Shown piece after piece: positions 6,524 through 32,835 of a stretch of DNA of 64,000 nt. This DNA comes from Eledone cirrhosa (Eukaryota). The notes under the pieces are model-generated. The model ran no database searches, had not been told where the DNA came from, and saw only the letters and a program-made list of their open reading frames with translations. The stretch covers positions 186,001-250,000 of the forward strand of contig CAXHJY010001105.1 of the NCBI GenBank assembly GCA_964016885.1, given 5' to 3'. The position numbers and the translations under genes were made by a program. Every line of letters begins with the position of its first letter. Position 1 is the first letter of the stretch.

Positions 6524-9500
6524 CTACAGGCTGATATAGAGAGAAGACCCATTCACTCTGGCCATTCTCCCTACTTTCACCCACCTTTCATAAAACTTGC
6601 TGGGGTAGAGCACCTCTCTCTCCATTCTGATCCTTCTTTTAAAATGGTATTTGAAAAAGGGGACCAGTTGTTGGCCGGAGAGAAAGGTGTCTGACCTCAG
6701 CCCTTTCAGCCTCGTCCACCATACAACTTCTTTAGCCATGGCTACCACACAGAGAAAAACCGCCTCTCCTTCGTTTTTGAAAGGGGGAGGCGGTTTGATC
6801 GTGACAATGGACTCGGTGGTCAACCGGATTGGTCCCACCCTCGACAGTAGTCGTTCCACATAGCCCCACAGGTCAGCAATGCCTGGGCAGTGTACGAATG
6901 CGTGCGCAACGGTTTCGTCATCATGCACGCATCTCGGACAGATCTTATTCAAAGGATCTCTACCCAGGCTCCCATGCCTGTGGAGCTTGTCTCGAACGGG
7001 TAGAGCCCCTCGGTAGCACTGCCAAGCCAGGGACTTTTGGAAGTTGTCCATCGGTCCAGGGCCAAACGTCCTACCGAACAGACTGGCCAGTTCATCTTCC
7101 TCCATGCCTAGAGCTTCTCCGAGAGCATCGTCGCACCTGCTGCGTACCAACCCTCTATAGAATGTCGAGGTGGAGTCTCCACTGATTGCCGGGTCCGCTT
7201 TCCAGAGGGCCGTGAGCGCCTGGGCACATTCAATGTGCCAGTCGCCCACTTTTCTCGGTCTTTGCTTGACCCAGGATTGCAGCTCGGTGAGCGAGACGAG
7301 TCTGGGAAAGGCTCGCCTCACAAACGGGGCCCACACCGGTTGACCGGTGAGGAATACCTGGAGGTGCCGTAGCCTTAATGCGTGTTTACGCATCTGTAGC
7401 CACGGCATCCCCAGCCCTCCTTTCGAAGGGTGTTGACAGCAGATGGATCTCCTCACCAAAGGGGTCCGCTTGTTCCAAAGAAATTGGAACAGCGCGCACT
7501 CCATTTTGGCGAGTCTTTTCACTGGGCAAGGCACGACGGTCAAGCGGTAGTAGATGACGGATGCTATATAAGTATTCGCCACCTCCGCTCGACCTTTCAG
7601 GGATAGTTTGCACTGGGCCCACTTCTGGGTGAGTGCAAACACCCTGGCCGTTACCTCGTTCCAGTTTTTCTCCACCTGGAGGTCTGGTCCGAACCAGACC
7701 CCAAGCAGCTTCACCGGGCCCTCCGTCCAGCGTCCGACGACGTCGTTGGAGGGCATCGGTTTGCCTCTCCATGTTCCGAGTTGCAAACCGACGGACTTGT
7801 CCCGGTTCAGCTTGGCTCCTGTAAACCTTTCATATTCCTCCAGTAAGGTGCCGATCTCACCGATTTGCGAGGTTTTCGACACCATTACTGTCACGTCATC
7901 GGCGTAGGCCGACGCCGCTTTCTGCAATCCCGGTTCCAAAGGGATGCCCTGCAACCGCTCCAACTTCCGCAGTAGTGGCTCAAGAGCCAGCACATACAGT
8001 AGGGAGGAGAGAGGGCATCCCTGTCGGATGGATCGCATGATTTGGAACGGCTCCGAGAGGTGGCCGTTCACCTTGACCCTTGAGCAGACGTTGCTGCTGT
8101 GCATCGCAGCAATCCAACCCCTGAAAACGGGTCCGAAGCCTGCCGCCGCGAGCACCGCATCCAGGTAACGATGGTCAACCCTATCGAAAGCTTTAGATTG
8201 ATCCAAGTTGATCAGGGCCCCACCAAAGCCGGGTTCATTCCCTACCCTCTCTATGATGTATCGCATAAGGTGGAGATTGTCGTGAATGGACCTGGACGGG
8301 ATTGCGCATGTCTGCGCTTCTCCCACCAGGTTTCCAACGACAAGCGCCAACCTCTTCGCTAACACCTTGGCCAAAATCTTTAACTCTGTATTTAGCAGAG
8401 TTATGGGCCTGAAGTTACTTATGTCATCCCCCTTGTTCTCATCCTTCCTCACCAGCGTAACTACGCCCTTGGTCACAGAACTGGGAATTCTCCCGTTCTG
8501 CTGCCAGTTGCAGTAGACCGCTTCGAGGATATCGGAGAACAAGTCCGGCATCGCTACATATAGCTCGTATGGTAGACCATCGAGACCCGGGGATTTGCGT
8601 TTGCCGCATTGGCTCAGCGCCGCCCCTATCTCAGCAGCTGAAATCGTCCTTTCGCAGGACTTCGCCTCCGCGTCCGAGAGGCGCGGCAGACCGTCGAGGT
8701 ATGGATTGAAATCCATAGTCTCACCCGGCGCGCCGCCCCTCTCGAACAGTCGTGCAAAGTGCCGCTGAAAGGCCGCACACATCTGCCCAGGTTCAAGGAT
8801 CACACGCCCATCCTGGTCCTTCAAAGACCGAATCGTGGACTTGTTCCCACTTTTTGCCTCTGTCACTCGGGCCCAGCTTACAGCTTTGGCTCCCTCATTA
8901 CCCAGAGCACGTATTTTACTCCTGACAACGCAGCCTTCATGCTTCACCTCAAAGAACTGGTCTAAGGCCATTCTTGATGCCAGCACGCCGGCTACATTGC
9001 CACTCCTAATCGCCTCTTCTACTCTATCTACTAATTCCCTTTCCGTCTTGTTCCTATCCCTTGCTAATTCCTGACTAAAACCTATCGATTCTATTCTAAT
9101 TGCTCTCTTAAGAGAGCTCCACCACCTGTTGTTGACAATTGCCCCTGTCAAATTCTGCTTAACTAACGTGCTAATCCGTTTACTGTAAGCTTTGCTTCTC
9201 GGTAAGGACAAGTTCAGCTTCCAGTAACCGGGTCCCTGTCTATGGGTTCTATCAAGGTTGGCTATGCAGGTCACTAACTTGTGATCCGAATAGTCAACCA
9301 TGAACATTTTTGGACAGCTAAATGTGTCCCTATCGTTCTCTCTAACTAGGACCCTATCTAGGTACGACCTAGATGTTCCACTGCGATTGGTCCACGTCCA
9401 TAGTGGTACAGTCGGAAAATCTAGTCGATATCTATCGGCCAGGTCAAATCGGCCGATTAACCTTTTGAGGCTTTTACACCCCCCCCCCTCTATTGGCACA

Positions 9501-9965
9501 TGCCCCTACATAGTCCCAACGTGCATCCAGGATACCATTCCAGTCCCCCACTAAAAGCAAGGAGCGGGACGTTCCCAGAAAAGTTTCCAGACGTTGGAAG
9601 TATTCCGGCCGCGCTGCCCAAAAAGGGGCGTACACAGCTATTAGTCTAAGGGCTCCACTTTCACTACTGCCGACGTCTAAAACCACCAGTCGACCCTCCG
9701 GGTCCAGGTGCACCTTCTGTATGGCGAGGCCCAGGTGTTTTCGCAGCAGAACGACAACTCCACCCCCACCCCCCGGTTGACAGAGAGATGCGAAGATCTC
9801 AAAGTCGTCGAAGAGGGGCGCCAGTTGGTGCTCGCTGCTGATCCTGGACTCGCAAATAGCCATTACATCCATTCTATGTGACCTGAGATCGTTTAAAAGT
9901 TTGCCTTGTTTCCAAGACAGTCCCAGGCCACGTACATTCAGAAACCCAACTCTTATATCAGCCAT
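6524..9965 (-). CDS. LINE ORF2: AP endonuclease + reverse transcriptase + C-terminal Zn finger (one frameshift at G10 run 9479-9488)
   Basis: LNVRGL, GDWN and SDH endonuclease motifs; PGLDG, FRPITLLN, KAFDRV, QGCPLS and YADD RT motifs; removing one G fuses ORFs 9965-9474 and 9499-6524 into 1146 aa. Confidence 0.92.
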
Positions 9966-9986
9966 GTTGGTTAAAAGAGGAAGGAC

Positions 9987-11729
9987 CTACCTGTTCGGCT
10001 CCTGAGGAGCAGGTTGCACAATATCCATGGGCGTATTGGAGGGGTTGTTTGGTGGGGTGTTGTTCTGTGGTGGAGTGGGGGTGTTTGGTGAGGTGTGGGT
10101 GGGGAAACGTTTCAAGAGGACGCGGTTATAGGGTCGAGTACATGTTTTCCCCACGTCCTCAGGAAAGTTCTCTCTTAGTTTTGCATAGGTGTCCATTGGG
10201 AGTCTTATCATTTTTAAATGCGGTTTGTTGGCCGCGCTTGCAAAGAATTGCCCTTCAGTTTCCACCAAAGGGTCTTTGTGTATTGTTTTTACTAGTTCTT
10301 TGTTATTTGTGTTAATGTATGTATACTGTTTTATTTGTGTTGTGTTTGTTTGTTGTTCTTGTGTGTGCTTACGTTTTGTTGTATGTGTTATGTTTTGGGG
10401 TGGGGCGGATTTTGTTTGTTCTGTTTGTTTTGTTTTTGTTGGTGGTTGTGTGTTTGTTTCGTTTATGTTCGAGTGGTGCTTTCTTTTTTTCCTTTTTACA
10501 GGTTGGAAGGGTTCCCCCTCTTCGTCACTAGGTGCCGTTTCCGCTGGGTCCTCGTCCGTGCTGTCGGGTAGTGGTGTATTTTGGGGTTTTGTTGTATTTG
10601 TGTGTGTTTTGGGAGTTGTTTTGGGTGGGGCCGTGTCTTGTGTTATTTTTCCCTGTTGTTTTTGTTGTTGTTGTGGTGGTGGTGGTGGAGGTGGTGGTGG
10701 TGGTGGTGGTGGCGGTGGTGGTGTGTGGGGTGTAGGCAAAAGAGCCTTTTTTTTTGTCAATTGAGGACAAGCAGCCCTTAGATGACCCCTGCTTGAACAG
10801 TAGTAACATATGGGCCTCCTACCCTCGGCTGAAATATATATAAATGTTTCTCCATCGAGGGACACCCTCTGTGGTATTCTAGCGATTCGTTCTGGTCTCA
10901 TTTGGACCAGAACCTCCACGCTCAAACCGCCGAAAACGTCTGTGGTGACTTCTCCTACTGAGAGGATTCCGTCCTCGTCTTCTAAAAATCCTGTTAGTAC
11001 CCAGGAAATGCATGCATTTGGCCGGATTCCGGAGACCCTTATCTTCTGCGTTCTTTTCCCTAAATATGTGGGGAAAAATGTATATATCTTGGAAATAATT
11101 GGTGCCACAGAGTATTTCCTGGCCGTCAATTGATCCTTCATTAGGACCGTTATATTCCCATAGAGTGGCCCTTTTTGTATGAACGATATATCACTCCACA
11201 CATTTTTTAGGACCAGCTCAATCTCTTTTTGGGATAATTGAGTTGGTTTCCTTGTTATGTTGGAAATTGTTCTGAAAGATATCGTTCTTAGCGTCGTGTC
11301 TCTTTTGATTTCTTGTGGGGAGGTGATTGTGAAGTCTCCTCCTTCTTTGAAAGTTACATACTGTTTTGCTTCCTTCATCTTTTCTCTCAGAGTTGTAATG
11401 TCCAGTTGCTTGCAGGTTTGTGTTTTCCGGACCGCCTGTGCAAAGGAGGTACCAGTAGTGGGTTCACTTTGTTTGGTGTTATCGTTATTTTTTCCTTGGT
11501 TGGTGTTGTGACTATTGCTGTTATTGTCGTTGATGTTTTTGTCTGCGTTTATGTGACTTTCTGGGTTTTCACCCATTTCTACAAATTTTTCTTTTAATTC
11601 CGTGTTCCATGTTTCTTTTGCAGAAGTGAGGAGGGAAGACTTAGAGCCTTGTGCTTCTAGCTTCTCTGTATCACCTTTCTTAGGGGGCGTGGCTTTCACG
11701 TTAGGATGAGATGTGAAAATTCCGTCCAT
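9987..11729 (-). CDS. LINE ORF1 (gag-like nucleic-acid-binding protein with CCHC knuckle)
   Basis: Open frame from the ATG at 11729 (MDGIF...); CYYCSSRGHLRAAC knuckle, poly-Pro/Gln tract, basic KRKKRK patch; ends 21 nt before ORF2. Confidence 0.88.
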   Translation of the reverse strand: MDGIFTSHPNVKATPPKKGDTEKLEAQGSKSSLLTSAKETWNTELKEKFVEMGENPESHINADKNINDNNSNSHNTNQGKNNDNTKQSEPTTGTSFAQAVRKTQTCKQLDITTLREKMKEAKQYVTFKEGGDFTITSPQEIKRDTTLRTISFRTISNITRKPTQLSQKEIELVLKNVWSDISFIQKGPLYGNITVLMKDQLTARKYSVAPIISKIYTFFPTYLGKRTQKIRVSGIRPNACISWVLTGFLEDEDGILSVGEVTTDVFGGLSVEVLVQMRPERIARIPQRVSLDGETFIYISAEGRRPICYYCSSRGHLRAACPQLTKKKALLPTPHTPPPPPPPPPPPPPPPPQQQQKQQGKITQDTAPPKTTPKTHTNTTKPQNTPLPDSTDEDPAETAPSDEEGEPFQPVKRKKRKHHSNINETNTQPPTKTKQTEQTKSAPPQNITHTTKRKHTQEQQTNTTQIKQYTYINTNNKELVKTIHKDPLVETEGQFFASAANKPHLKMIRLPMDTYAKLRENFPEDVGKTCTRPYNRVLLKRFPTHTSPNTPTPPQNNTPPNNPSNTPMDIVQPAPQEPNR

Positions 11730-11940
11730 TTCTATTAGTTTGCCGTAATAAATTTTTAACTGGAAAATTCGCCCCAAAAAGGGGCGAAAATAAATAAACT
11801 CAAAGTTTGACGACCAAGGCAAGGGGTTAACGTATATTACAGTATAAAAAAATTAATCAAAACTCACTTTTTGAGTAAGTAAATCCGACTCGGTAGCCGA
11901 GCTTGTTCACACACGTCAACACACGTCTCTCGTATACGAG

Positions 11941-21891: not shown

Positions 21892-21974
21892 ATGTTATTC
21901 CGGGTTGAATCGGAGGTAACCACAGTAAGTAAGGTACTCAATACATAGCAGAGTATAAAAGTTTTAATATAGAT

Positions 21975-22027
21975 GAGATTCTACAGGACTAGAACTGTTT
22001 CATTCTTTAGAAATCATCAGGAATCTC
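21975..22027 (-). ncRNA. Type I hammerhead ribozyme within a 54-bp perfect inverted repeat
   Basis: Minus strand GAGATTC-CTGATGA-TTTCTAAAGAAT-GAA-ACAG-TTCTAGTC-CTGT-A-GAATCTC; 7-bp stem I, 4-bp stem III. Confidence 0.8.
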
Positions 22028-22716
22028 TGATGATTTCTAAAGAATGAAACAGTTCTAGTCCTGTAGAATCTCATCTATATAAATATATATATATATATAA
22101 CCAAAGATTAATATGGTTCGTTGATTATTCAACGAATACAATTTTACAATAGATTAAAAGCACTCTACTTCATATTTTCCTTTTCCTTTTCTTCGTTTTT
22201 CTTTATTCCCCTCCGTTTTCTCTTTATTCTTCCCACATCTTCCCTTTCTTTGGTTTTTATTCCTCTTTTCTCTTACTTCTTTTTTTCTTCTTTTATTCAT
22301 TTATTCATTTATTTATTTATTTATTCATTTATTTATTGGTTTATTTCTTGCCTTTTCCTCTTCTTTGCATCCCCCTTCTATATTTCTACCTTGCTCTACA
22401 TCCTTTACTTCTTTAAGTTTATCATATTATTTGTGGTATAAAAACGTTGTGATTTGATGAAATAAAGCACTGCCAATACTGGAATTGAATAATCAAAACC
22501 GTAGCGGCATGTCACATATCAAATCATATATTTTATCTGATGAAAACGTACTTAAACACCATTGTACCTTTGAAATATGTATAATAAAATATATATTTTG
22601 ATTATGAGAATATTTTTCATTTATTAACATTTTGAATAATATATATATATATATATATATTTCGTTTCTGAATTTGTTTAGCAAGATTCTTTATCTGAAA
22701 TCGTGTGTTGAAACCG

Positions 22717-23204
22717 ATATTGTTATACTTTGGGAGGGTCATGTTGCCAATAAGAAACACACGCACCAGTTGCTTTCACTTCAATTTATTATATATATTA
22801 TATATATTATATATATATATTATATATATATATATTATATATATATATATATTATATATATAAATAAATAAACAAATAGATAAATGAACATAAACACACA
22901 CAGACACCCGGATGTGGCGCATGCGCAAACTGAGCACACAACACACACACAGAAACAAAATGGCGTAGGACAGAACAAAGGAAAGGCACAGAAACAAAGA
23001 AAGGAATCCCCAGTCACTGAAGAGGTCACAGTGTGTGACGAAAGGACTATGACTATATATAAACAACTATCTGGTTGTGGAACCAACCAACCAACCAGAA
23101 ATTTATAAATTTATAAATTTGTAAATTTATAAATATATAATAAATTGAAGTGAAAGCAACTGGTGCGTGTGTTTCTTATTGGCAACATGACCCTCCCAAA
23201 GTAT

Positions 23205-23212
<8 letters not shown>
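22717..23212. repeat. ~80-bp inverted repeat pair (22717-22796 / 23133-23212)
   Basis: atattgttatactttgggagggtcatgttgcc...caatttattatatat and its reverse complement. Confidence 0.88.
23012..23054 (+). ncRNA. Minimal hammerhead ribozyme (possibly decayed)
   Basis: AGTCA-CTGAAGA-G-GTCAC-AGTGT-GTGAC-GAA-AGGACT-A-TGACT; 5-bp stems I and II, 2-bp stem III. Confidence 0.65.
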
Positions 23213-25227: not shown

Positions 25228-28200
25228 ATCATCATCATCATCATCATCGTTTAACATCCGTGTTCCACGCTAGCATGGGTTTGGATGGGGGTTTTCCCAC
25301 TTGAGGCAAGAGTGGTTGTCTTGCTCGCATAGGACTATCTGGCGGGTTTTCTACAGCTGGATGCCCTTCCTAACACCAACCACATTTACAGTGTGGGGCT
25401 GGGAGGTTTTTACCGTGTTGTCTACACGGCCACATTACAGCGTGGACTATGTGTTTTTTTGTCGTGACACCTACACGACCTCATTTGTTTCGGGCTGGAT
25501 GTTGTGGCACCAACATAACTTTACATTGAAAGGGGCGGTGTGGATGGGGTGGGGGTGGTGGGACGGGGGTGTATTTTGTTAGAGATGCCTACTGACTGTA
25601 GTAGGTTTTACTTTGTATTTAGGTACTTTGTATTTAGGGTCTTCTCTATTACTGAGTACCGCCAAAGGTCTCGGTCCAGTGACATTGTCTTGGAGAGGTG
25701 TAAGTGTGTGAGGTCGGAATTTATCAGCTCGTCCCAGGTTTTTCTGGGTCTGCCTATTCCGTGGCTACCGTCTATCTTTATTGCCCTGCACTTTGTTATA
25801 CAGCTATCGTCCTTCATGCGCATCACGTGACCATACCAACGTAGCCTTCTCTTGAGTAAACAACACCTGATCCCTCTTATTTCTAATTTTTTCCTTAGTT
25901 CGTTTATGCTTTGCCGTTCACGTATATTACTATTACACATCCAGCGGAGCATGCAAGCTTCGTTTCTCTCTAGTCTGCGTATATCCTCTGCACACAATGC
26001 CCAGGTCTCACTGCCATGCAACATTGCTGTTCGTATGCAGGCATCGTACAACCTGCCTTTCATTTTTAGGGAGAACCCTTTAGCGGCTAATAGCGGTATA
26101 AGCTCTCTGAACTTTTTCCATCCAGTTCTGACTCTAGCTACTGTACTTTCAGAGCACCCTCTCCCACTGCTGATTTTGTCACCCAGGTAACGGAAGCTGT
26201 CCACTATTTCTATAGAACCCTCTGCGCAGTTGAAAGAGCTAGTATTTTGTGGGCACTTGCTGCTACTTATTGCCCCAGAGCACCAGCCACATGTAAAATC
26301 TGTGTTCTTAGTTAGCTTACCTGTGATCCCACTACATCTTTTATGCACCCATACTTTGCATTTGGGACACAAAATGGAGTTTCTACCTACGCCTTTCCTA
26401 CACACTGAGCATGGCCACTTCCCGGAGGGGACCGCCGCCTTATTTTCTTTCTTACAAACTAGAACTTTAGTTTTAGCCAGGTTAATTTTAAGGCCTTTTG
26501 ATTCTAGGCCGTGCTTCCATGTTTGGAATTTCTTCTCTAGCTCGGCCATTGATTCAGCTATGAGCGTTAGATCATCTGCGTATAGGAGTTCCCATGGGCA
26601 GCCGGTCTTGAACTCCACTGTTATAGCCTGAAGGGCAATAATAAATAGTAGGGGGCTAAGAACAGAGCCCTGATGAACACCAACTTTTACGCTAAACTCT
26701 TCACTATATTCGTTGTTAATTCTAACCTTGCTGACTGTTTCTTTATACATGGCTTGTATAGCTCTCACAAGCCATTCATCAACACCTAGTTTTCTAAGAG
26801 CCCACCAGATAATGGAACGGGGGACTCTGTCGAAGGCTTTCTTCAAGTCGACGAAAGCTAAGTATAGGGGTTTACTTTTAGCTAGGTACTTCTCCTGTAG
26901 TTGTCGTACAATGAAAAGAGCATCTGTGGTACTTTTGCCTGACACAAACCCGAACTGCATTTCATCTAGATCAATTCTCTCTCTGATTAGTTGCTCTATT
27001 ACTTTTTCCGTGACCTTCATGACCTGGTCGATTAATTTAATGCCTCTATAGTTACTCCTATCTAGGGCATCTCCTTTACCCTTATAACAGTTAACGATGA
27101 TGCTGCTACGCCAGTCCTTCGGAACAATCCCATTCTGTATGACTTGGTTGACTATCCGGGTGACCATGGTGTGTCCCACCGTACCAGATGCCTTCAGCAT
27201 CTCGGCAACTATTTCCGAAGGCCCAGCCGCCTTACCCGTCTTCATATCTTTGATTGCCTAACTTATTATACTACCCTCGACTAACACTGCTGGTCCCCCT
27301 ATTGGGTCAATGTGGGGGAGACTGTCTTTCTCCCATTTATTCTCCTCATTTAGTAGCCTTTCATAGTGACACTTCCAAGCTACCTTCTTATCAGCGTCGG
27401 TGATGGCAAGTACGCCGTCATCATTAAGTACACACTTCTCCCCGACAATATCACGGTTTTCCTTGACACATTGCCTAGCAATCCTGAACACCTCACGTTT
27501 TTGGTCCTCGCGTTGTAGAACATGCTTGAACTTTCTTTCCTCTGCTTCCCTTCTTGCGAAGTACACTTGTCTCCTAGCTTCCCTCCTGGCCACTTGATAG
27601 TCTTCTCTACTTCCCCCATCCCGCCATACTTTCCAAGCCTGCTTTTTGGCCTTAATTGACCCCTCCACCTTACTGTTCTACCACCATGTTACTCTCCTCC
27701 TGCCTACAGGCCTGCTCCAGCCACAGACTTAGTCTGCCGCCATCAGCAGGTTTGCTTTCAGGAATTCCCACTGTTCCTCTACCTTGTACGACTCTAATTG
27801 TTCTTCCTTACTGTCGAAAGCATCAAGTAGTATACTTTTGAATTTATTTCTGGCTGTGGGGTCCTTTAGCTTCCATATTGTTCTCCTGAGGATAGTCCTC
27901 TTCTGTTGTCTAGTACGTCTCGTCCTGACTATTAGGTCGCTAATTATCAGTCTATGTTGGGAGGTGCATTCTTCATGGGGGAGGGATTTAGTGTTTACAA
28001 CAGACACTCTGTCACGTCTTCTGGTAAGGATATAATCTACCTGGCTTGTGTGTTCCCCCGATCTATAGGTGATCAGGTGATTGTCACGTTTTTTGAAGTT
28101 AGTGTTACAGATAGTTAGGTTATTTGCGTCACAGAATTCCAGGATTCTGGAGCCTTCCTCGTTTCTAGTACCAAACCCATAGCCTCCATGGACTTCGTCG

Positions 28201-28270
28201 TAGCCGTCACAATGTTGTCCAACGTGACCATTTAGGTTGCCTGCAATAATTATATAGTCACTGTCGGTTA
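25228..28270 (-). mobile_element. RTE-clade LINE, 5'-truncated inside the endonuclease and disrupted by stops/frameshift
   Basis: APE motifs [14 protein letters not shown] and SQHRL; RT motifs KAFDRV, HQGSVLSP and YADD; PHD finger; GRPRKTW C-terminus; (ATG)n tail; frame broken at 27729, ~27668 and 27258. Confidence 0.95.
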
Positions 28271-29641
<1,371 letters not shown>

Positions 29642-29725: not shown

Positions 29726-30064
29726 TGAATGTAAAAGGTAAACAGAAATAACAACACAATCAGTACAGTATATGGAAGGAATATATTAGGTTAATGCTTG
29801 ATATAGCAGATATATATATAGATATGTAAGTATGCATGTATACGTACATACATATATGTATACAGACGTACAGTAGCATGCACATATATATATATATATA
29901 CATATATATATACATATGCATACAGGTACACATACATATATGCACGTATCAGTTTAGCAGCGCTAACGTCGCTTTGTTCGTTTGTAAACAAACTGAACAG
30001 CCTGAATTTATGCCATACGGTGTTAAGGCAACCACGTCACCTTTTTGTTCAACACTGACACAGG

Positions 30065-30109
30065 AACGATGTACTAGTTTCAAGCTTGTTAGCTATCATC
30101 AGCACCGTT
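30065..30109 (-). ncRNA. Minimal type I hammerhead ribozyme, copy 1
   Basis: Minus strand AACGGTG-CTGATGA-T-AGCT-AACA-AGCT-T-GAA-ACTAGT-A-CATCGTT; 7-bp stem I, 4-bp stem II, palindromic stem III. Confidence 0.85.
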
Positions 30110-30182
30110 TACCCATCTGCCAGATAGTTGAACGTTCGAAAGTATATACTTTCCTTATGAAAATTAACGGCTGAGCAGCCTA

Positions 30183-30190
30183 ATTTGCAT
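30183..30190 (-). promoter_or_regulatory. Octamer motif ATGCAAAT (in each complete 466-bp unit)
   Basis: ctaatttgcatatt on +; about 75 nt upstream of the hammerhead on the minus strand; function unproven. Confidence 0.35.
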
Positions 30191-30530
30191 ATTGAGTGAG
30201 TTAAATCGGTCAGGCATACCGAAAACGATAAATTGAAACAAAATGAAAACGAAATTTCATTTCTCACTCTTAGTATGGCACTTACTTAAATGTAAGTATG
30301 CATGTATACGTACATACATATATGTATACAGACGTACAGTAGCATGCACATATATATATATATATACATATATATATACATATGCATACAGGTACACATA
30401 CATATATGCACGTATCAGTTTAGCAGCGCTAACGTCGCTTTGTTCGTTTGTAAACAAACTGAACAGCCTGAATTTATGCCATACGGTGTTAAGGCAACCA
30501 CGTCACCTTTTTGTTCAACACTGACACAGG

Positions 30531-30575
30531 AACGATGTACTAGTTTCAAGCTTGTTAGCTATCATCAGCACCGTT
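30531..30575 (-). ncRNA. Minimal hammerhead ribozyme, copy 2
   Basis: Identical to 30065-30109. Confidence 0.85.
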
Positions 30576-30984
30576 TACCCATCTGCCAGATAGTTGAACG
30601 TTCGAAAGTATATACTTTCCTTATGAAAATTAACGGCTGAGCAGCCTAATTTGCATTTTGAGTGAGTTAAATCGGTCAGGCATACCGAAAACGATAAATT
30701 GAAACAAAATGAAAACGAAATTTCATTTCTCACTCTTAGTATGGCACTTACTTAAATGTAAGTATGCATGTATACGTACATACATATATGTATACAGACG
30801 TACAGTAGCATGCACATATATATATATATATACATATGCATACAGGTACACATACATATATGCACGTATCAGTTTAGCAGCGCTAACGTCGCTTTGTTCG
30901 TTTGTAAACAAACTGAACAGCCTGAATTTATGCCATACGGTGTTAAGGCAACCACGTCACCTTTTTGTTCAACACTGACACAGG

Positions 30985-31029
30985 AACGATGTACTAGTTT
31001 CAAGCTTGTTAGCTATCATCAGCACCGTT
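30985..31029 (-). ncRNA. Minimal hammerhead ribozyme, copy 3
   Basis: Identical to 30065-30109. Confidence 0.85.
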
Positions 31030-31454
31030 TACCCATCTGCCAGATAGTTGAACGTTCGAAAGTATATACTTTCCTTATGAAAATTAACGGCTGAGCAGCC
31101 TAATTTGCATATTGAGTGAGTTAAATCGGTCAGGCATACCGAAAACGATAAATTGAAACAAAATGAAAACGAAATTTCATTTCTCACTCTTAGTATGGCA
31201 CTTACTTAAATGTAAGTATGCATGTATACGTACATACATATATGTATACAGACGTACAGTAGCATGCACATATATATATATATATATATACATATATATA
31301 TACATATGCATACAGGTACACATACATATATGCACGTATCAGTTTAGCAGCGCTAACGTCGCTTTGTTCGTTTGTAAACAAACTGAACAGCCTGAATTTA
31401 TGCCATACGGTGTTAAGGCAACCACGTCACCTTTTTGTTCAACACTGACACAGG

Positions 31455-31499
31455 AACGATGTACTAGTTTCAAGCTTGTTAGCTATCATCAGCACCGTT
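31455..31499 (-). ncRNA. Minimal hammerhead ribozyme, copy 4
   Basis: Identical to 30065-30109. Confidence 0.85.
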
Positions 31500-31920
31500 T
31501 ACCCATCTGCCAGATAGTTGAACGTTCGAAAGTATATACTTTCCTTATGAAAATTAACGGCTGAGCAGCCTAATTTGCATATTGAGTGAGTTAAATCGGT
31601 CAGGCATACCGAAAACGATAAATTGAAACAAAATGAAAACGAAATTTCATTTCTCACTCTTAGTATGGCACTTACTTAAATGTAAGTATGCATGTATACG
31701 TACATACATATATGTATACAGACGTACAGTAGCATGCACATATATATATATATATACATATATATATACATATGCATACAGGTACACATACATATATGCA
31801 CGTATCAGTTTAGCAGCGCTAACGTCGCTTTGTTCGTTTGTAAACAAACTGAACAGCCTGAATTTATGCCATACGGTGTTAAGGCAACCACGTCACCTTT
31901 TTGTTCAACACTGACACAGG

Positions 31921-31965
31921 AACGATGTACTAGTTTCAAGCTTGTTAGCTATCATCAGCACCGTT
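31921..31965 (-). ncRNA. Minimal hammerhead ribozyme, copy 5
   Basis: Identical to 30065-30109. Confidence 0.85.
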
Positions 31966-32386
31966 TACCCATCTGCCAGATAGTTGAACGTTCGAAAGTA
32001 TATACTTTCCTTATGAAAATTAACGGCTGAGCAGCCTAATTTGCATATTGAGTGAGTTAAATCGGTCAGGCATACCGAAAACGATAAATTGAAACAAAAT
32101 GAAAACGAAATTTCATTTCTCACTCTTAGTATGGCACTTACTTAAATGTAAGTATGCATGTATACGTACATACATATATGTATACAGACGTACAGTAGCA
32201 TGCACATATATATATATATATACATATATATATACATATGCATACAGGTACACATACATATATGCACGTATCAGTTTAGCAGAGCTAACGTCGCTTTGTT
32301 CGTTTGTAAACAAACTGAACAGCCTGAATTTATGCCATACGGTGTTAAGGCAACCACGTCACCTTTTTGTTCAACACTGACACAGG

Positions 32387-32431
32387 AACGATGTACTAGT
32401 TTCAAGCTTGTTAGCTATCATCAGCACCGTT
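32387..32431 (-). ncRNA. Minimal hammerhead ribozyme, copy 6
   Basis: Identical to 30065-30109. Confidence 0.85.
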
Positions 32432-32835
32432 TACCCATCTGCCAGATAGTTGAACGTTCGAAAGTATATACTTTCCTTATGAAAATTAACGGCTGAGCAT
32501 ATATAGATAGATAAACATATATATATATATATATGTGTGTGTATATATATATATGTATGTGTGTATATATATATATATATATGTGTGTGTGTTTATCTCA
32601 CATAATGACATGGTGACACTTTAAACAGTCAGAAAGCTGGGAAGGGGGTGATGGTGTAGTACAGGAAAATGTCATGGTCACATGCTTATTCAAACTTTCC
32701 CCACCACACCTCATACACACACACACACATACACATACACACACACACATACATACACACACACACATACACACACCCACCCGCACTTATTTTCTCAGAA
32801 ATAAACCACTCACAGCTCATATGTGTAATGTGATG

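Follow-up and report, generated by a model that had tools for sequence, protein, structure and literature searches.

Retrozymes of animals, including a mollusc, have already been described (PMC7229834, PMC7761336, and bioRxiv 10.64898/2026.07.22.740005). Those of coral, mussel, and axolotl (Cervera and de la Pena 2020, PMC7229834) consist of short, tandem, noncoding, low-GC units with a self-paired fold; each unit carries one canonical type I hammerhead ribozyme, and the copies number in the thousands. Cleavage and circular RNAs were demonstrated for these elements, cleavage of the amphibian forms was shown to depend on dimers, and RtcB ligated the mussel and axolotl RNAs in vitro, while the helper was only proposed (PMC7229834). 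Vertebrate retrozymes (Li, Clavereau, and Pollet, bioRxiv 10.64898/2026.07.22.740005) co-occur with Penelope-like elements (PLEs) as dispersed monomers, dimers, and multimers, and PLE enzymes are proposed to copy them; 24 of 57 families in Xenopus match Repbase elements, nearly all of which are PLEs matched at their pseudo-LTR (pLTR) ends. On the basis of co-occurrence and pLTR similarity, PLEs have been called "strong" or "likely" candidates for mobilizing retrozymes (PMC7229834 and bioRxiv 10.64898/2026.07.22.740005).

EN+ PLEs (Neptune/Nematis type, e.g., PAc of Anolis; PMC11167929 and PMC8557442) have two internal 3' ends, partial tandems, microsatellite targets, and a minimal type I hammerhead. 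Their insertions contain an inverted, 5'-truncated copy and a 30- to 40-bp tail, usually at one end only (Craig et al., PMC8557442); the tail corresponds to the segment that separates two internal start sites of the reverse transcriptase (RT), and both target strands are cut and extended (Frangieh et al., PMC11167929). The nonautonomous elements of Chlamys, such as MRC1 (PMC8557442), are noncoding, are mobilized by PLEs, and form multicopy head-to-tail insertions.

The window (i.e., the whole 64-kb stretch of Eledone cirrhosa DNA that was analyzed) sits on contig C1132 of the 3.0-Gb genome G000 and contains a tandem array that resembles the coral, mussel, and axolotl retrozymes in unit organization, composition, fold, hammerhead type, and copy number. 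Two further resemblances are the basal U.U of helix II, also present in the axolotl HHR_Amex2, and a weak palindromic helix III like that of the amphibian forms (PMC7229834). The Eledone units are larger (420 to 540 nt versus approximately 170 to 400 nt), and the main text of PMC7229834 contains no cephalopod host; cleavage and circles are demonstrated there and the helper is only proposed, whereas for the Eledone element cleavage and circles are predicted and the insertion footprints were read. The vertebrate sample, as described in the text of the preprint, includes no mollusc; local tandem amplification is discussed there, whereas the Eledone tandems appear to arise at insertion, and the Eledone unit lacks the pLTR homology of the Xenopus families (see below for the PLEs sampled). 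With EN+ PLEs the element has in common the paired internal ends, one-end tail, inverted 5'-truncated arm, partial tandems, microsatellite targets, and hammerhead, but it has no open reading frame (ORF), its tail is approximately 59 nt long instead of 30 to 40, and its hammerhead is canonical, with conserved loops, where theirs is minimal. Unlike the Eledone unit, MRC1-type elements have 3' sequence in common with an autonomous Chlamys family, and hammerheads are mostly undetected in Chlamys (PMC8557442).

The element is almost certainly of the retrozyme type, a reading that was put forward in the earlier note and is borne out by the tandem noncoding units, the canonical type I hammerhead under structural selection, and the dispersed high-copy family described below. 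The full explanation, i.e., that the array is one recent insertion of an animal non-LTR retrozyme copied via Penelope-like enzymes, is likely.

An array of six hammerhead motifs

The array occupies positions 29824..32499 of the window on the minus strand (2,676 bp; G+C content of the unit, 0.36) and is bordered by AT-rich repeats on both sides. TRF assigned it a period of 466, 5.8 copies, and 98% matches, in agreement with the near-identical units of approximately 466 bp reported in the earlier note. It is a single-arm insertion composed of a 106-nt 5'-truncated unit, five full monomers measured from cut to cut, and a 248-nt 3' partial unit. Six identical hammerhead motifs (proximal stem I, core, and stems II and III), one per unit and all on the minus strand, were found where the earlier note had placed them: 30065..30109 (predicted cut, 30072/30071; CUGAUGA start, 30102), 30531..30575 (30538/30537; 30568), 30985..31029 (30992/30991; 31022), 31455..31499 (31462/31461; 31492), 31921..31965 (31928/31927; 31958), and 32387..32431 (32394/32393; 32424). 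Recomputation reproduced the first cut (30072/30071) and the monomer lengths of 466, 454, 470, 466, and 466 nt; the monomers differ only in the length of an (AT)n hairpin and by two point changes. The units were said to lack a credible ORF, and only short frames were seen, the two longest stop-to-stop frames tested (114 and 81 aa) having no Pfam match.

A dedicated descriptor search confirmed the intact hammerhead core: it returned exactly six matches in the 64-kb window, all within the array, and none in 20,000 dinucleotide-shuffled units. The motif has the canonical type I features (core CUGANGA, GAAA, an NUH site, and stems I to III). The only hammerhead family among the Rfam matches listed was Hammerhead_HH9 (RF02275), at 18.5 bits against a gathering score of 52 (E value, 1.3 with 9 kb searched and 0.016 with 111 nt searched), and this subthreshold score counts against the retrozyme explanation. 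The other Rfam matches over the 9 kb were of (AT)n to microRNA models, all below threshold, and were set aside. For stem II, the U.U base given in the earlier note stood, but in place of its 4 bp with a 4-nt loop, comparison with a sister family (see below) favors U.U followed by 3 bp, with the conserved UAAYAA as a 6-nt closing loop.

The core and stems are conserved in other genomic copies. Among the first 100 of 22,214 genome matches, inspected by eye, variation recurred at N7, in loop II, at one stem I pair (G.U, U.G, or A-U), and in the distal stem, the first three each varying in tens of rows, and no core change recurred in more than three. In 20 chosen variants of the family (family 1), 97% of cells were paired, and both sides were changed in only 2 of 22 pairs, a small number that counts against the full explanation; when 8 family 1 and 4 sister sequences were compared, 6 of 16 pairs, including three of the four stem II pairs, were changed on both sides with pairing restored, while the core, the two sides of loop 1 (GGUA and UUCC), and loop 2 (UAAYAA) were invariant across both families. 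As the rows in these comparisons are mutually related, the shuffle controls are not probabilities. Judged from sequence comparison, the hammerhead fold is under structural selection, and the ribozyme is quite probably active. Within a monomer, stem III comprises just 2 bp around a 2-nt loop, a structure that the energy model disallows, whereas two copies can form a 6-bp self-complementary duplex (-4.8 kcal/mol); cleavage would therefore occur in dimers.

The reference 466-nt monomer (30072..30537, minus strand) is highly self-paired (z, -8.9), a value to which the (AT)n hairpin contributes; this long hairpin of variable length spans 30302..30415 (minus strand; monomer positions ~123 to 236). 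The fold is conserved across subfamilies, with double changes in 9 of 118 consensus pairs of the whole monomer (16 monomers, one row being out of register).

Several other features were observed in the window. A LINE-like element at 6527-11852 (minus strand) has frames of 621, 170, and 993 aa and is interrupted on both sides by 72-bp tandem arrays. A short inverted pair of another hammerhead-like family lies at 21960-22090 (22027 on the plus strand and 22020 on the minus strand) and was also seen at loci L024, L049, L109, and L110. Beyond the array, a 116-bp AT-rich satellite fills 32836-61612 (248 copies, 97% matches).

Genomic copies and their insertion ends

The dispersed tandem copies for which the earlier note proposed a search were found in the genome. 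The hammerhead core pattern had 25,443 matches (control, 0), and 22,214 matches were obtained when only the hammerhead flanks were fixed. Dispersed copies range from monomers to multimers and, in identity, from 100% (on other chromosomes) down to approximately 75%, a spread that indicates an old family with recent activity. At 25,000 copies of approximately 450 bp, it would make up roughly 11 Mb of the genome. A 470-nt contig in X2, one of four contig sets of unspecified kind, would be expected equally from a tandem or a circle.

A pattern with the same stem III and a different stem II gave 6,057 further matches (control, 254). These mostly belong to a sister retrozyme family, which accounted for 91 of the first 100 listed; this search had been aimed at an autonomous parent, and its matches were the sister retrozyme, not a PLE. 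The sister family (loci L248-L258 of G000, e.g., C1:53175 and C1:30831844-30840564) has several thousand copies of 466- to 468-nt units, a GUU cleavage site, and a G-C pair at the base of stem II, with loops and two 3' ends as in family 1.

Arrays of family 1 end at two fixed internal sites, at monomer positions ~251 and ~310, which are 59 nt apart, and their 5' sides are truncated at variable positions. At 7,527 places in the genome, the unit stops at ~310 and is followed by TATATAT. In 82 loci of 2 to 10 kb, we classified 106 ends as short (45) or long (61), the classifier allowing two classes only and the printed junctions agreeing within a few bases with few exceptions; 104 of the 106 were followed by a TA-type repeat. 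Head-to-head pairs (n = 34) combined a short with a long end in 32 cases and two long ends in 2, and none combined two short ends, an excess of mixed pairs with a probability of about 2e-8 under independence (calculated by hand); the remaining 38 ends were unpaired or had a partner outside the locus. The sister retrozyme has an identical two-end layout, and autonomous PLEs in the genome likewise have two ends, inversion, and (TA)n.

The retrozyme insertions thus carry the Penelope "tail" signature, and the element has very likely been spread by Penelope-type machinery. In the inverted insertions, each of the two arms is multimeric and stops at one of the fixed sites; tandems therefore appear to have been present at integration. 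The window array is a one-arm, short-ended insertion, and this unidirectional structure counts against the full explanation. Its 3' end (29824..29830, minus strand) coincides with the short end of the family (monomer positions ~248 to 251), where reverse transcription would have started, and the tail of approximately 59 nt between the two ends (monomer positions ~252 to 310) is present in every full unit, e.g., at 30228..30286 (minus strand). A possible 10-bp target-site duplication at the window locus (29814..29823 and 32499..32508, plus strand, the right copy being followed by (TA)n) lies in low-complexity DNA and may be due to chance; animal non-LTR retrozymes have duplications of more than 4 bp where they have them, but none were evident at the other single-arm loci viewed.

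The neighborhood of the array also brings to mind a SINE-like element mobilized by the abundant RTE-type LINE that flanks it. Fragments of RTE-like LINEs containing RT and PHD-finger domains lie at 25608-28271 and 28624-29640 (minus strand), the latter cut by the (TA)n that adjoins the array, and such RT/PHD fragments also occur near other copies. No 3' resemblance to the LINE was apparent in passing, and a tail confined to one arm, together with two fixed internal ends, is a PLE feature; we regard a LINE-driven origin as extremely improbable.

The copying template

In the retrozyme life cycle that we propose, read-through transcription of the minus strand would yield an RNA that cleaves itself as a dimer after GUA, giving monomers of approximately 466 nt, which a host ligase would join into circles. 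The RT and endonuclease of an autonomous PLE would then return the sequence to the genome at (TA)n microsatellites, where nicks would prime reverse transcription at two internal sites of the RNA (twin priming), and repeated copying round one circle would generate the tandem units.

Most arrays are uniform internally and differ between loci, down to the length of (AT)n. Both inverted arms of L035 have a 468-nt unit, one variant is present in all 14 full units of L037, and arrays reach at least 14 full units with locus-specific variants in common. Such uniformity fits repeated copying of one monomer, as expected from a circle, and also a uniform linear multimer. Four loci (L229, L126, L046, and L039) have period-2 or period-3 arrays or, in one case, an array of mixed subfamilies, and these speak against a monomer-only model. 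L229 (G000:C1:19314200-19317700) is a strict ABAB array, with two stem I changes at every second junction; this is the pattern that a dimer circle would give, and it may equally have arisen by later duplication. A damaged hammerhead junction, considered as a general feature of periodic arrays, was seen in L229 and perhaps L046 but not in L126 or L039. A single monomer circle does not account for the periodic and mixed arrays, which would require circles of two or three units, switching of template, linear multimeric RNA, or subsequent duplication.

The same element and a Penelope-type helper could also work from a linear template, i.e., an uncut read-through multimer or template-jumped monomers, circles being absent or a by-product. 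All predicted helices are as compatible with a multimer as with a circle, and the periodic and mixed arrays are in keeping with this route. Two published results favor it and count against our full explanation: 8 of 9 Xenopus retrozyme dimers were uncleaved in vitro (bioRxiv 10.64898/2026.07.22.740005), and PAc inserts in vitro without hammerhead cleavage, which is dispensable there (PMC11167929). Arrays of at least 14 near-identical units (6 to 9 kb), however, would need long uncut RNAs with many intact hammerheads, and the conservation of core and loops across families, together with the circles demonstrated for coral, mussel, and axolotl retrozymes (PMC7229834), also weighs against a linear route. 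We consider the linear route improbable and lean toward a circular template.

PLEs of the genome as possible helpers

About five PLE families of the genome were sampled. Among the matches listed, the retrozyme unit had no overall pLTR homology in 60 PLE loci plus five pLTR pieces; it matched neither the pLTR of the abundant PLE of L106, nor 30 GIY-YIG loci, nor the five pLTR pieces. An ORF with RT and GIY-YIG between pseudo-LTRs was absent from the array, and none adjoined the unit in the 20 ten-kb loci scanned; adjacency to PLE ORFs was among the checks proposed in the earlier note. That note had offered tandem Penelope pseudo-LTRs as the alternative to a retrozyme. The two are not exclusive: identity with a pLTR found no match among the sampled elements, while the link to Penelope stands through the PLE-type footprints.

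In a related model (bioRxiv 10.64898/2026.07.22.740005), the unit would descend from a truncated Penelope insertion whose orphan pseudo-LTR was multiplied in place, as a minisatellite, through unequal crossover. Xenopus retrozymes resemble pLTRs (same preprint), local duplication is compatible with the periodic arrays, and a parent may have been missed with about five families sampled. Against this stand the lack of pLTR homology and of unit-adjacent PLE ORFs in the loci given above, the hammerheads of the genome's PLEs, which are minimal and different from that of the retrozyme, and the inverted insertions, whose arms are both multimeric with ends at the two fixed sites. An orphan pseudo-LTR is thus very unlikely, and we return to a retrozyme copied by PLE enzymes.

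Among named homologues of one PLE protein of the genome, the best is from Octopus vulgaris (69%), which makes an octopod host likely. One PLE family (L159/L222) has intact 775-aa RT-GIY-YIG frames and a CxxxxCxxC linker of the Neptune/Nematis type, this Zn-finger linker being the sole basis for the label "Neptune-type." Its copies are 5 to 11 changes apart over 2,325 nt and are as young as the youngest retrozymes. The short end of this PLE resembles the long end of the retrozyme over approximately 30 T-rich nt (anchored shuffles, P = 0.0015 to 0.005, post hoc and best of 35 and 32 comparisons), so that the geometry of the motif is reversed between the two. The corresponding resemblance of the sister family was not significant (P = 0.09 to 0.14), and the resemblance between the retrozyme and this PLE went undetected in a local test without anchoring. 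The L159/L222 PLE is accordingly a helper candidate and a weakly supported lead only. A young retrozyme lying head to head with a young copy of the same PLE family (L218/L227) was considered as one event and rejected; because approximately 150 bp of AT repeat lies between them and both ends are long, we read it as two insertions into one microsatellite.

A more specific reading, speculative and rather unlikely, is that the retrozyme RNA circle is a mimic and not a pseudo-LTR remnant: it would recruit one specific, currently active Neptune-type PLE protein, that of the L159/L222 family, through a ~30-nt copy of the priming site of that PLE, be primed at a pair of sites, each on a different target strand, and be copied round and round. 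If true, the enzyme, cis signal, and mechanism behind animal retrozyme mobility would all be identified.

Three further observations concern the PLEs themselves. A very young PLE (L221-L226, e.g., G000:C1:399392500-399400500) has a 409-aa upstream frame that overlaps a 775-aa RT-GIY-YIG frame in another phase, possibly through a frameshift or as two ORFs. The pLTRs of several Neptune-type families (L142-L169 and L171-L220) contain minimal hammerhead-like motifs in which U3-A8 replaces the core C3-G8; these have a palindromic stem III and a GUA site, are missed by CUGANGA descriptors, and in one case have a retrozyme-like U.U at the base of stem II. In the window, a solo pLTR of the abundant L106 PLE lies at 22700-23208 (plus strand) between an inverted piece, which precedes it, and (TA)n, which follows; its minimal hammerhead has CUGAAGA at 23017.

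A full-text literature search found no report of a cephalopod retrozyme, although supplements or Repbase could list octopus repeats, and, with most subscription papers lying outside it, found no PLE tails read from retrozyme insertion sites. What the Eledone element adds is insertion anatomy: the retrozyme is likely copied by Penelope-type enzymes, a link that has so far been mostly proposed. The published in vitro assay for PLEs could test both the helper and the rolling-circle step, since the genome supplies intact candidate proteins, young subfamilies of the retrozyme, and defined sites at which copying starts.
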